Positions 1-27,919 are shown, counted from the stretch's first letter. The stretch is DNA of 64,000 nt from Escherichia coli (GCF_048403405.1 NZ_CP183129.1), one strand, 5' to 3'. Numbers and translations: made by a program. Notes: generated from the letters alone by a model not told the origin.

Positions 1-143
1 CACCAGAACATCTTTTCACAGGCAAGCGTGAAATTCTGATTGATGTATTGATCAAGCTCCGCCAGGCATTCACGTTCAATCGCCAGGACTTCTTTACCTG
101 CTTGCTGAAAGTCAAAACCCGGTTGTAACTCTACGTGCGACAT
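1..143 (-). CDS. kdsD: D-arabinose 5-phosphate isomerase KdsD, 5' end only (N-terminal 47 codons; gene continues beyond window start)
   Basis: Reverse complement of 1..143 translates MSHVELQPGFDFQQAGKEVLAIERECLAELDQYINQNFTLACEKMFW, matching the KdsD/YrbH N-terminus; ATG at 141-143 (minus); lies directly downstream of yrbG on the same strand as in E. coli. Confidence 0.85.
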   Translation of the reverse strand, partial: MSHVELQPGFDFQQAGKEVLAIERECLAELDQYINQNFTLACEKMFW

Positions 144-156
144 AATGCGTTTCCAG

Positions 157-1134
157 TTATTCAACGAGTATTGGCGATAACCAGTACAACATCGCCAGCC
201 ATACGATAAATCCGCCAGTTAATAATACCCCTACACCACGGCCCGATTGCGGGGAGCGCCGCCAGCACAGCAACGCAAAAATAATGCTCACCAGCAACAT
301 CACGCTGTAGTCACGACTGTACGCCAGTGGATCAATCTCTCCTGGCGTTATCAGCGCGGGTAAACCCAACACGATGACAATATTAAAAATGTTTGCGCCA
401 ATGATATTTCCGACAGCAATGTCGTTTTCACCTTTGCGAACCCCCGCTATTGCGGTTGCCAGTTCCGGTAAGCTGGTTCCGATAGCAATTGCCGTCAGCC
501 CCATCGTCAACTCACTGATGGCAAAGTAATTCGCCAGCACCGTGGCGTTATCAACCACCATCCGCGTGGCCACTGGCATGATGATAAGCGCAATGCCGAG
601 CCATAAAAACGCGACGGGCAATCCACCGTCACGCGGCAGCTCTGCAAGCTGCTCTCTGGTCAGGCTGTCAGTCCCCTGACGTTCAGCCTGACGTGCAAGT
701 TTAACAATGAACAGCAGCCATAGCACAGCCAGAAAGAGGAGAAAGATACCATCGCTGCGACTAAGTTGTCCGTCATAGAGTACGGAACCGGCCACCACGC
801 TGACCAACAACATTAAGGGTAATTCACGGCGCAGAACATCGGAATGGACGGTAAAAGGACGAACCAGCGCAGCCAGACCGAGGATCAGCAATATATTGAT
901 AATGTTTGAGCCGAGGGCTGTACCAACGGCTAAATCGCGTTGTTCGTGCAGAGACGCGGCAAGCGAGACGATGATTTCTGGTAACGATGTACCAATACTG
1001 ACCACCGTCATGCCGATGATCAGCGGCGGGATGCCAAAGGTTCGGCAAAGAATAGACGCGGCAAAAACCAGGCGGTCGGCACTGTAAACGACCAAAAGTA
1101 AACCAACAATTAACAGTGCCGTAGCTAAAAGCAT
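157..1134 (-). CDS. yrbG: Putative Ca2+/Na+ antiporter, CaCA family inner membrane protein
   Basis: 325-aa ORF, ATG at 1132-1134 (minus), multi-TM hydrophobic protein with duplicated GTSLPE motifs typical of CaCA exchangers; matches E. coli YrbG. Confidence 0.93.
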   Translation of the reverse strand: MLLATALLIVGLLLVVYSADRLVFAASILCRTFGIPPLIIGMTVVSIGTSLPEIIVSLAASLHEQRDLAVGTALGSNIINILLILGLAALVRPFTVHSDVLRRELPLMLLVSVVAGSVLYDGQLSRSDGIFLLFLAVLWLLFIVKLARQAERQGTDSLTREQLAELPRDGGLPVAFLWLGIALIIMPVATRMVVDNATVLANYFAISELTMGLTAIAIGTSLPELATAIAGVRKGENDIAVGNIIGANIFNIVIVLGLPALITPGEIDPLAYSRDYSVMLLVSIIFALLCWRRSPQSGRGVGVLLTGGFIVWLAMLYWLSPILVE

Positions 1135-1343
1135 CTAACGTCCTTTCTTCAGGTATACTCGCCGGTCCGCTGAAGATTTTCAGAAAGCCGTAACGGATTC
1201 TTAATTTTGACTTTATGCGGCTAAAAAGTAAAACAAATGCCAGCTTTCGCTAACCACGGCGGGTAATATTCTGTAAATATGTTGGGTTCAAGGTTAAATT
1301 GAGCGCCATGCTTAGAAAATCAACGCAAGACGAAGGGTGAATT

Positions 1344-2943
<1,600 letters not shown>

Positions 2944-2947
2944 GTTC

Positions 2948-3499
2948 ATGCAAACGAAAAAAAATGAAATTTGGGTGGGTATCTTTTTATTAGCAGCACT
3001 ACTGGCGGCGCTGTTTGTTTGCCTGAAGGCGGCGAACGTGACGTCCATACGTACTGAACCGATCTACACGCTTTATGCGACGTTCGATAACATTGGCGGC
3101 CTGAAAGCGCGCTCTCCGGTCAGCATTGGTGGTGTTGTTGTGGGCCGGGTGGCGGATATTACGCTGGACCCGAAAACCTATCTGCCGCGCGTAACGCTGG
3201 AAATTGAACAACGTTATAACCACATTCCTGATACCAGTTCGCTGAGCATTCGTACTTCCGGCCTGCTGGGGGAACAATATCTGGCATTAAACGTCGGTTT
3301 TGAAGACCCGGAACTGGGGACTGCTATCCTGAAGGATGGCGATACAATTCAGGACACCAAGTCTGCGATGGTGCTGGAAGATCTTATTGGTCAGTTCCTT
3401 TACGGTAGTAAAGGCGATGACAATAAGAATAGTGGCGATGCGCCAGCTGCTGCGCCAGGTAATAATGAAACCACTGAACCTGTGGGTACAACGAAATAA
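2948..3499 (+). CDS. mlaD: Phospholipid ABC transporter substrate-binding protein MlaD (MCE domain)
   Basis: ORF-track entry 2933..3499 trimmed to ATG 2948 (MQTKKNEIWVGIFLL...), 183 aa, N-terminal TM anchor plus MCE domain. Confidence 0.93.
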   Translation: MQTKKNEIWVGIFLLAALLAALFVCLKAANVTSIRTEPIYTLYATFDNIGGLKARSPVSIGGVVVGRVADITLDPKTYLPRVTLEIEQRYNHIPDTSSLSIRTSGLLGEQYLALNVGFEDPELGTAILKDGDTIQDTKSAMVLEDLIGQFLYGSKGDDNKNSGDAPAAAPGNNETTEPVGTTK

Positions 3500-23734: not shown

Positions 23735-25222
<1,488 letters not shown>

Positions 25223-25246: not shown

Positions 25247-27919
25247 ATGACAGATGTAACGATTAAAACGCTGGCCGCAGAGCGACAGACCTCCGTGGAA
25301 CGCCTGGTACAGCAATTTGCTGATGCAGGTATCCGGAAGTCTGCTGACGACTCTGTGTCCGCACAAGAGAAACAGACTTTGATTGACCACCTGAATCAGA
25401 AAAATTCAGGCCCGGACAAATTGACGCTGCAACGTAAAACACGCAGCACCCTTAACATTCCTGGTACCGGTGGAAAAAGCAAATCGGTACAAATCGAAGT
25501 CCGCAAGAAACGCACCTTTGTGAAACGCGATCCGCAAGAGGCTGAACGCCTTGCAGCGGAAGAGCAAGCGCAGCGTGAAGCGGAAGAGCAAGCCCGTCGT
25601 GAGGCAGAAGAATCGGCTAAACGCGAGGCGCAACAAAAAGCTGAACGTGAGGCCGCAGAACAAGCTAAGCGTGAAGCTGCTGAACAAGCGAAACGTGAAG
25701 CTGCGGAAAAAGACAAAGTGAGCAATCAACAAGACGATATGACTAAAAACGCCCAGGCTGAAAAAGCCCGCCGTGAGCAGGAAGCTGCAGAGCTCAAGCG
25801 TAAAGCCGAAGAAGAAGCGCGTCGTAAACTCGAAGAAGAAGCACGTCGCGTTGCTGAAGAAGCACGTCGTATGGCGGAAGAAAACAAATGGACTGATAAC
25901 GCGGAACCGACTGAAGATTCCAGCGATTATCACGTCACTACTTCTCAACATGCTCGCCAGGCAGAAGACGAAAGCGATCGTGAAGTCGAAGGCGGCCGTG
26001 GCCGTGGTCGTAACGCGAAAGCTGCGCGTCCGAAGAAAGGCAACAAACACGCTGAATCAAAAGCTGATCGTGAAGAAGCACGCGCAGCAGTACGTGGCGG
26101 TAAAGGCGGAAAACGTAAAGGTTCTTCGCTGCAGCAAGGCTTCCAGAAGCCTGCTCAGGCCGTTAACCGTGACGTAGTGATCGGCGAAACCATCACCGTT
26201 GGCGAACTGGCGAACAAGATGGCGGTTAAAGGCTCTCAGGTCATCAAAGCGATGATGAAACTGGGCGCAATGGCAACCATCAACCAGGTTATCGATCAGG
26301 AAACCGCACAGCTGGTTGCTGAAGAGATGGGCCACAAAGTTATCCTGCGTCGTGAAAACGAGCTGGAAGAAGCGGTAATGAGCGACCGTGACACGGGTGC
26401 AGCGGCTGAACCGCGCGCGCCGGTTGTGACCATCATGGGTCACGTTGACCACGGTAAAACCTCTCTGCTGGACTACATTCGTTCAACGAAAGTGGCCTCT
26501 GGCGAAGCGGGCGGCATTACCCAGCACATTGGTGCATACCACGTTGAAACTGAAAACGGCATGATCACCTTCCTGGACACCCCGGGGCACGCCGCGTTTA
26601 CTTCAATGCGTGCTCGTGGTGCGCAGGCAACGGACATCGTAGTCCTGGTTGTTGCTGCCGACGACGGCGTAATGCCGCAGACCATCGAAGCAATCCAGCA
26701 CGCGAAAGCGGCGCAGGTTCCGGTGGTCGTTGCAGTGAACAAGATCGATAAACCAGAAGCCGATCCGGATCGCGTTAAGAACGAACTCTCCCAGTACGGC
26801 ATCCTGCCGGAAGAGTGGGGCGGTGAAAGCCAGTTCGTACATGTGTCTGCGAAAGCGGGTACTGGTATCGATGAGCTGCTGGACGCTATCCTGCTGCAGG
26901 CGGAAGTTCTGGAACTGAAAGCGGTACGTAAAGGCATGGCGAGCGGTGCGGTTATCGAATCCTTCCTCGATAAAGGTCGTGGTCCGGTTGCTACCGTTCT
27001 GGTACGTGAAGGTACTCTGCACAAGGGCGATATCGTTCTGTGTGGCTTCGAATACGGTCGTGTTCGTGCGATGCGTAACGAACTGGGTCAGGAAGTGCTG
27101 GAAGCGGGTCCGTCCATTCCGGTGGAAATCCTCGGCCTGTCCGGCGTTCCGGCTGCGGGTGATGAAGTTACCGTTGTACGTGACGAGAAGAAAGCGCGTG
27201 AAGTTGCACTCTATCGTCAGGGTAAATTCCGCGAAGTTAAACTGGCGCGTCAGCAGAAATCTAAACTCGAGAACATGTTCGCCAACATGACCGAAGGCGA
27301 AGTTCACGAAGTGAATATCGTCCTGAAGGCAGACGTACAGGGTTCTGTGGAAGCTATCTCCGACTCCTTGCTGAAACTGTCTACTGACGAAGTTAAAGTG
27401 AAGATCATCGGTTCTGGCGTAGGTGGTATCACCGAAACCGACGCTACCCTGGCTGCGGCGTCCAACGCCATCCTGGTTGGCTTCAACGTACGTGCTGATG
27501 CCTCTGCACGTAAAGTAATTGAAGCGGAAAGCCTGGATCTGCGTTACTACTCCGTCATCTATAACCTGATCGACGAAGTGAAAGCGGCAATGAGCGGTAT
27601 GCTGTCTCCGGAACTGAAACAACAGATTATCGGTCTGGCGGAAGTTCGTGACGTATTCAAATCACCGAAATTTGGTGCCATCGCAGGTTGTATGGTTACC
27701 GAAGGTGTGGTTAAACGTCACAACCCGATCCGCGTTCTGCGCGACAACGTGGTTATCTACGAAGGCGAGCTGGAGTCCCTGCGCCGCTTCAAAGATGACG
27801 TTAACGAAGTCCGTAACGGTATGGAATGTGGTATCGGCGTTAAGAACTACAACGACGTCCGCACTGGCGATGTGATCGAAGTATTCGAAATCATCGAAAT
27901 CCAACGTACCATCGCTTAA
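25247..27919 (+). CDS. infB: Translation initiation factor IF-2
   Basis: 890-aa ORF with repetitive charged N-terminal region and GTPase domain ([21 protein letters not shown]). Confidence 0.98.

Follow-up and report, generated by a model that had tools for sequence, protein, structure and literature searches.

The window analysed here is a 64,000-nt stretch of Escherichia coli DNA (GCF_048403405.1, NZ_CP183129.1), and the plus-strand ORF at 25247-27919 within it is infB, encoding the initiation factor IF2 (IF2-1, or alpha) of 890 aa plus stop. The product carries the Pfam domains IF2_N (twice), IF2_assoc (residues 56-94), GTP_EFTU, EF-G_D2, IF-2 and GTP_EFTU_D2, with PF04760 (two stretches), PF08364, PF00009, PF22042, PF11987 and PF03144 all above their curated cut-offs. 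The gene is preceded by nusA (23735-25222), with rimP further upstream and rbfA, truB and rpsO downstream, and the order rimP-nusA-infB-rbfA-truB-rpsO, read from the ORFs and from the RefSeq annotation of five homologous loci, is the enterobacterial one. The 341-nt span at 25540-25880 is 100% identical to annotated infB of E. coli O157:H7 and O145 genomes and was matched in 5,425 of 5,426 complete E. coli genomes, RefSeq annotating infB in 5,425 genomes. Domains, operon order and identity to RefSeq infB thus uphold the gene assignment of an earlier, sequence-only reading of this DNA. The same reading called the span a known low-complexity region of IF2, and rightly so: the repeat-rich N-terminus, the isoforms and the variability between species are textbook matter. 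The six-domain model is that of Mortensen and Sperling-Petersen, and the isoforms are named IF2-1, -2 and -3 (alpha, beta and gamma). The repeat is a known, ordinary feature of a very well-studied protein. Set beside E. coli K-12 IF2 and its Domains I-II, the present gene is the same one, with an identical length of 890 aa and internal starts at the same codons, 158 and 165, and does not differ in kind; what is added here is a census of unit-number alleles in 5,426 genomes.

The 5' part of infB contains two blocks of in-frame repeats. Block A (25535-25717, plus strand) is an imperfect tandem repeat of 8 codons (24 nt) over codons 97-157, with a core at about codons 103-156, and it is supported by the codon table, TRF, a shuffle test and an AF2 helix. 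Laid out in rows of eight codons, it reads QEAERLAA, EEQAQREA, EEQARREA, EESAKREA, QQKAEREA, AEQAKREA, AEQAKREA, AEKDK. Block B (25799-25882, plus strand; codons 185-212) consists of two 8-codon units followed by 7-codon units (RKAEEEAR / RKLEEEAR / RVAEEAR / RMAEE), as reflected in TRF periods of 24 and 21 nt and again in an AF2 helix. TRF reported four arrays with unit-to-unit matches of 74-88%, three of them of period 24 (25555-25611, 25598-25712, 25799-25848) and one of period 21 (25835-25882). The sequence-only reading had described successive near-identical segments here. All three peptides and the DNA string (25658-25705) that it quoted do lie in the frame of the 890-aa ORF, and TRF and shuffling support the repeats themselves, with the qualification that units at such match levels are imperfect copies. 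Two minus-strand ORFs of 109 and 214 aa within 25396-26050, and a 134-aa ORF in another plus-strand frame (25773-26177), overlap the repeat; they were set aside as most likely not genes, since the GAA/GCN/CGT codon run leaves these frames free of stops and the gene around them is conserved at 100% as infB.

Self-comparison, which had been proposed as a check on the repeat, gave a clear signal. For codons 97-216, self-identity at an offset of 24 nt was 0.56, against 0.349 ± 0.028 (maximum 0.443) in 300 codon shuffles, an excess of about 7.5 sd, and offsets 48, 72 and 96 were the next strongest. The top diagonal segment scored 26, compared with 11.8 ± 1.8 (maximum 20) in codon shuffles, and identity at offset 8 in the block A protein was 0.63. 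The repeat is real, well above what composition alone yields. At identical residues of adjacent units, the same codon was used in 18 of 33 cases, where 16.2 ± 2.7 were expected from regional codon usage. Since codon sharing between units does not exceed the codon-usage level, the DNA repeat mirrors an old periodicity of the peptide; recent duplication as its source is ruled out on the same ground, and the repeat is, judging from the codons, old and maintained at the protein level.

Between the blocks lies a spacer reading KDK-V158-SNQQDD-M165-TKNAQ, which holds the internal start codons of the shorter isoforms, GTG158 (25718-25720, plus strand) for IF2-2 (beta) and ATG165 (25739-25741, plus strand) for IF2-3 (gamma, or beta'). 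Substitutions g474c and t494c abolish IF2-2 and IF2-3, respectively (PMC3334882), and nt 474 and 494 of the present gene correspond to 25720 and 25740, within the two codons. By sequence position, GUG158 and AUG165 are thus present in frame, and their usage in this strain is predicted. Of 40 Enterobacterales aligned, 35 have GTG and 2 have TTG at the codon matching 158, and 27 have ATG at the one matching 165. Because the internal starts lie between the blocks, block A is confined to IF2-1 and block B is carried by all three isoforms; the single block at 25540-25880 of the earlier description, although correct as to the repeats, missed the starts that split the span into two functionally different parts. 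The A-rich, non-repeat stretch at 25707-25756 (plus strand), the internal translation-initiation region, has less mRNA structure than any other of the 523 50-nt windows of infB, with an ensemble free energy of -2.3 kcal/mol where the windows average -11.9 ± 3.6, and it coincides with a break in the AF2 helix. A 123-nt fold around the internal starts was no more stable than its shuffles (z = +0.40), which, at the very site of the least structured window, rules out a conserved mRNA structure at the internal starts.

Domain I (157 aa, residues 1-157), made up of N1 and a flexible linker, is exclusive to IF2-alpha, where it makes contact with NusA in the C-terminal part of the latter (PMC12297416). 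The IF2 N-terminal region can be dispensed with at 37 °C but not in the cold, and some of it is predicted to be helical (bioRxiv 10.1101/2025.02.02.631968). AF2 supplied with the ortholog alignment predicted beta strands at residues 58-92, a continuous helix at 96-158 (pLDDT 83-89) and a second helix at 166-216 (pLDDT 78-85), with a break at 159-165 where pLDDT fell below 50. With a pTM of 0.27, the model is trustworthy for secondary structure alone, and two single helices and an antiparallel hairpin are indistinguishable in it. Opposite-charge i→i+4 pairs numbered 17 in the first helix (8.0 ± 2.2 in shuffles, z = 4.0) and 20 in the second (7.7 ± 2.2, z = 5.6), a 2- to 2.6-fold enrichment over shuffles of the same composition. 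Bulky hydrophobic residues made up 2 of 63 positions in the first helix and 5 of 51 in the second, and charged residues 52-57%. Both helices therefore show the E/K/R content, the paucity of hydrophobic residues and the i→i+4 excess by which SAH/ER-K sequences are recognised, and this combination of charge pattern and scarce hydrophobic residues is, as a sequence pattern, what marks charged single alpha-helices, as opposed to coiled coils. Among solved structures, sequence matches were to full-length IF2 chains only, none resolving the repeat region, and our literature searches returned nothing relevant that describes IF2 as a single-alpha-helix protein.

We consider it quite probable that the repeat-built, non-essential N-terminal part of IF2 forms two helical, semi-rigid spacers whose units are gained and lost by slippage or unequal recombination. 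The 8-codon (finally 7-codon) units would encode two long helices rich in Ala, Glu, Arg, Lys and Gln, at residues ~96-158 and ~166-216, parted by the short A-rich unstructured stretch with GTG158 and ATG165. Given a charge pattern typical of a stable single alpha-helix, these helices are most likely semi-rigid spacers, a structure and function read from prediction and sequence pattern, and their place would be between the ribosome-binding GTPase core and the small N1 domain, which binds NusA. With every 8-residue unit the helix would lengthen by ~1.2 nm. The closest likeness is with CSAH/ER-K domains such as the lever extensions of myosin VI and X and caldesmon, which share with the IF2 blocks an E/R/K/A-rich composition with few hydrophobic residues, i→i+4 pairing, long unbroken helices (predicted for IF2) and a spacer role (a proposed one for IF2). 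Unlike classic E4K4-type SAHs, however, the IF2 blocks contain more Ala and Gln, and block A has a net charge of -5; and, unlike CSAH domains, the IF2 region is called flexible or disordered in publications, its helicity here being a prediction.

To compare the blocks across genera, we aligned 49 full-length orthologs, drawn from 80 loci retrieved from one-genome-per-species contigs. This alignment of IF2 N-termini, the second check proposed earlier, proved informative in that block A varies in length while block B is constant. In 40 Enterobacterales, block A measured 34-71 aa, with a mode at 60 and a second mode at 68, whereas block B was 37 aa in 40 of 40, and the G and C-terminal domains were essentially free of indels. 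Among 53 block-A indel events, +8 tied with -2 as the commonest size (11 events), and most other sizes were not multiples of 8. The unit A-E-x-A-K-R-E is discernible across Enterobacterales, Aeromonas and Vibrionaceae. At the extremes, an Arsenophonus endosymbiont has lost nearly all of block A (the part aligned to codons 97-156), and Salinivibrio sharmensis has a longer and far more regular array, with AEEKAKRE occurring about five times.

The comparison also bears on a different view of the region, namely that it is a generic disordered low-complexity tether or condensate segment in which composition and length matter and the 8-residue period is a by-product of duplication. The first ~294-320 residues have been treated as an IDR driving cold-induced phase separation, with low AlphaFold confidence (bioRxiv 10.1101/2025.02.02.631968), the Domain I linker has been described as flexible (PMC12297416), and block A tolerates lengths of 34-71 aa and many substitutions between genera, all of which would suit a disordered tether. 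We nevertheless hold this view to be unlikely. AF2 predicted unbroken helices of 63 residues (pLDDT 83-89) and 51 residues (78-85); the i→i+4 pairs exceed those of same-composition shuffles 2- to 2.6-fold, so that the order of residues counts and not composition alone; and both the sequence and the register of the A-E-x-A-K-R-E motif, as of the entire block B, are conserved in Enterobacterales, Vibrionaceae and Aeromonas. Two helical spacers remain the reading that we prefer.

Variation within E. coli was surveyed with a junction library comprising all in-frame deletion and duplication junctions in 25520-25900, in 3-nt steps to ±192 nt (228 44-mers). Tried locally at a set database size of 28 Gb, the library left the wild type unmatched and recovered the positive control, strain N68; the N68 deletion had first been seen as the weakest match of the initial E. 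coli search. The library matched 63 of 5,426 genomes. One match, HNSQ2209 (H120; 95.6%, 2 mismatches), proved false, its gene being a normal one of 890 aa. With it and three unlisted lower-ranked matches set aside, in-frame whole-unit indels were carried by 59 of the 5,426 complete genomes of E. coli (1.1%; ~30 after clone collapse). The library registers an indel only if it keeps the frame, does not exceed 192 nt, has a microhomology of 5 nt or more and lies in a near-identical background, so this count is a lower bound. Thirteen junction types were seen, with sizes of ±21, ±24, +48 and -96 nt, and the resulting IF2 is 858-906 aa long. Strain-to-strain length variation had been anticipated for this region; it does exist and is located in the repeats, but it is rare, 98.9% of genomes having the canonical length. 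By the same procedure, the control region at 25900-26280 (381 nt, 98 junctions) yielded two genomes out of 5,426, namely those of strain 90-3040 and of record NZ_OZ546991.1, both with a change of ±6 nt (one Gly-Arg) in a GGRGRGR mini-repeat of GGC CGT units (25991-26011, plus strand; codons 249-255) that lies just outside the repeat region.

Every decoded match was a whole-unit change at 5-15 nt of microhomology, and 10 of the 13 junction types fall in block A. There, changes of ±24 nt occurred at codons 103/111, 134/142, 138/146 and 142/150, a gain of 48 nt at 133/149 and a loss of 96 nt at 109/141. The last of these, in strain N68, removes exactly four units at a 10-nt junction microhomology and leaves an intact 858-aa IF2. 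Two separate +24 duplications were found together in each of two strains. In block B, the alleles were -24 nt at codons 187/195 and -/+21 nt at 197/204. Because block B has a constant length between genera, these block-B variants of E. coli are probably transient, and the same constancy suggests that they may be mildly deleterious rather than tuning alleles. The loci that we retrieved were confirmed in 16 of 17 cases, with annotated, intact IF2 of 858, 882, 883, 897, 898 or 906 aa. A single clone (Esc1-29 plus CNR20191027) accounts for 29 of the 59 genomes, leaving ~30 independent strains. Three distinct DNA junctions gave an identical +AEQAKREA protein and three gave an identical -AEQAKREA protein, and deletions and duplications share sites. 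Such recurrence is what slippage or unequal exchange, acting repeatedly, would give. Adjacent units share 5-15 nt of exact, in-register identity, and replication slippage or unequal recombination between them could occasionally remove or add a whole unit, always keeping the frame, a mechanism that the anatomy of the junctions suggests. The N-terminal domains of IF2 were reportedly fully conserved in the 10 clinical isolates of Steffensen et al. 1997. Three similarly named human isolates in our set, N10 (NZ_CM165902.1), N25 (NZ_CM165897.1) and N68 (NZ_CM165878.1), carry infB alleles of +8, +8 and -32 aa, the source being recorded as CSF for N68 only.

The variants were judged from assemblies alone, many of the genomes are long-read assemblies, and most variants are singletons or small groups, as might be expected if they were sequencing or assembly artefacts of a repetitive region. 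That they are so is very improbable, since each variant is an exact multiple of the repeat unit and in frame, and the array is shorter than 200 nt with 12-26% divergence between units, hence spanned by single reads; random errors would not look like this. Moreover, one allele was present in 28 Esc isolates plus the source strain, alleles recurred across unrelated hosts and countries with RefSeq protein accessions of long standing (e.g. WP_000133053.1, shared by a UAE, a Canadian and a Chinese strain), and the sole false match, HNSQ2209, had two mismatches and was identified as such.

A tandem in-frame repeat whose units are recurrently gained and lost at the same sites also resembles a contingency locus, phase- or antigen-variable, at which frequent slippage is itself selected. 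Against such a role, which we regard as extremely unlikely, the units are imperfect (74-88%) with synonymous sites randomised between them, just 1.1% of genomes vary, IF2 is an essential cytoplasmic housekeeping factor, the fetched loci included no frameshift alleles, and block B is invariant in length in the 40 Enterobacterales. Near-perfect repeats with frequent, function-switching changes of length, the marks of a contingency locus, are not what we found with 59 of 5,426 genomes varying. Like VNTR-type coding repeats, which change by slipped-strand mispairing, the IF2 repeat gains and loses whole units in frame at in-register microhomologies, and it does so in recurrent, independent events, with deletion and duplication reciprocal at shared sites. 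It differs from them in that its units are 74-88% identical and its array is short, so that polymorphism is rare (~1%), and it is neither a useful typing marker nor a phase-variation switch. Occasional unit turnover in two helical spacers, as proposed above, is the account that we retain.

What is new is quantitative: the allele census, the contrast between blocks A and B, the position of the internal starts in the spacer that parts them, and the SNP poverty described below. In practice, annotators and users of infB typing schemes will meet an IF2 of 858-906 aa in ~1% of E. coli, and this should not be treated as an error. The natural allele series (-32, -8, -7, +7, +8 and +16 residues) is a ready set of spacer-length variants, which could probe the roles recently proposed for Domain I, coupling to NusA and cold-induced condensation.

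The repeat region varies in length but was the most SNP-poor of five 341-nt operon windows tested in E. coli genomes, a side of it that the earlier picture of a variable region, sound as regards length indels, left unmentioned. At 25540-25880, 98.2% of genomes were at least 99% identical, compared with 10.7% in the nusA window (24300-24640) and 46.7%, 15.1% and 15.6% in the infB windows at 25900-26240, 26600-26940 and 27300-27640. The window at 26600-26940, our first control, is a local polymorphism peak and exaggerates the SNP contrast, and three further windows were therefore added. In six full-length genes, synonymous third positions were polymorphic at 7 of 246 sites in codons 1-250 and at 75 of 621 sites in codons 251-890 (Fisher p = 8e-6, indicative only, as the sites are linked). 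Overall, the 5' ~750 nt of infB (25247-26000), repeat included, has very few SNPs within E. coli. RNA-level constraint and recombination history are candidate causes. As for RNA-level constraint between genera, same-codon identity was weakly in excess in block A and in the spacer but not in block B, which is unconvincing. Rare length changes beside near-absent SNPs make a small, as yet unexplained population-genetic observation.

Under a stronger proposal, the unit-number alleles would be functional, block A setting the reach of N1 in steps of ~1.2 nm or a threshold for cold condensation, and the lack of synonymous SNPs would come from selection on the mRNA. We find this unlikely, somewhat more so than the disordered tether. 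If it were true, selection on the mRNA over the first ~750 nt would, for example, keep the run-up to the internal starts unstructured, or would stop the repeats from growing more alike.

Codon choice and base composition are also distinctive in the repeat. For Gln, CAA:CAG is 9:3 in codons 97-216 (within 25535-25894) and 2:19 in codons 301-890 (26147-27916), and purine content is 0.68-0.69 in the repeat region and 0.56 in the whole of infB. Further downstream, codons 451-550 (26597-26896) form a polymorphism peak, with 26 polymorphic sites in 300 nt among six genomes, and have the appearance of a recombination patch. Q490G, the sole amino-acid difference observed, lies in this peak and matches the Gln/Gly490 polymorphism reported by Steffensen et al. 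1997.
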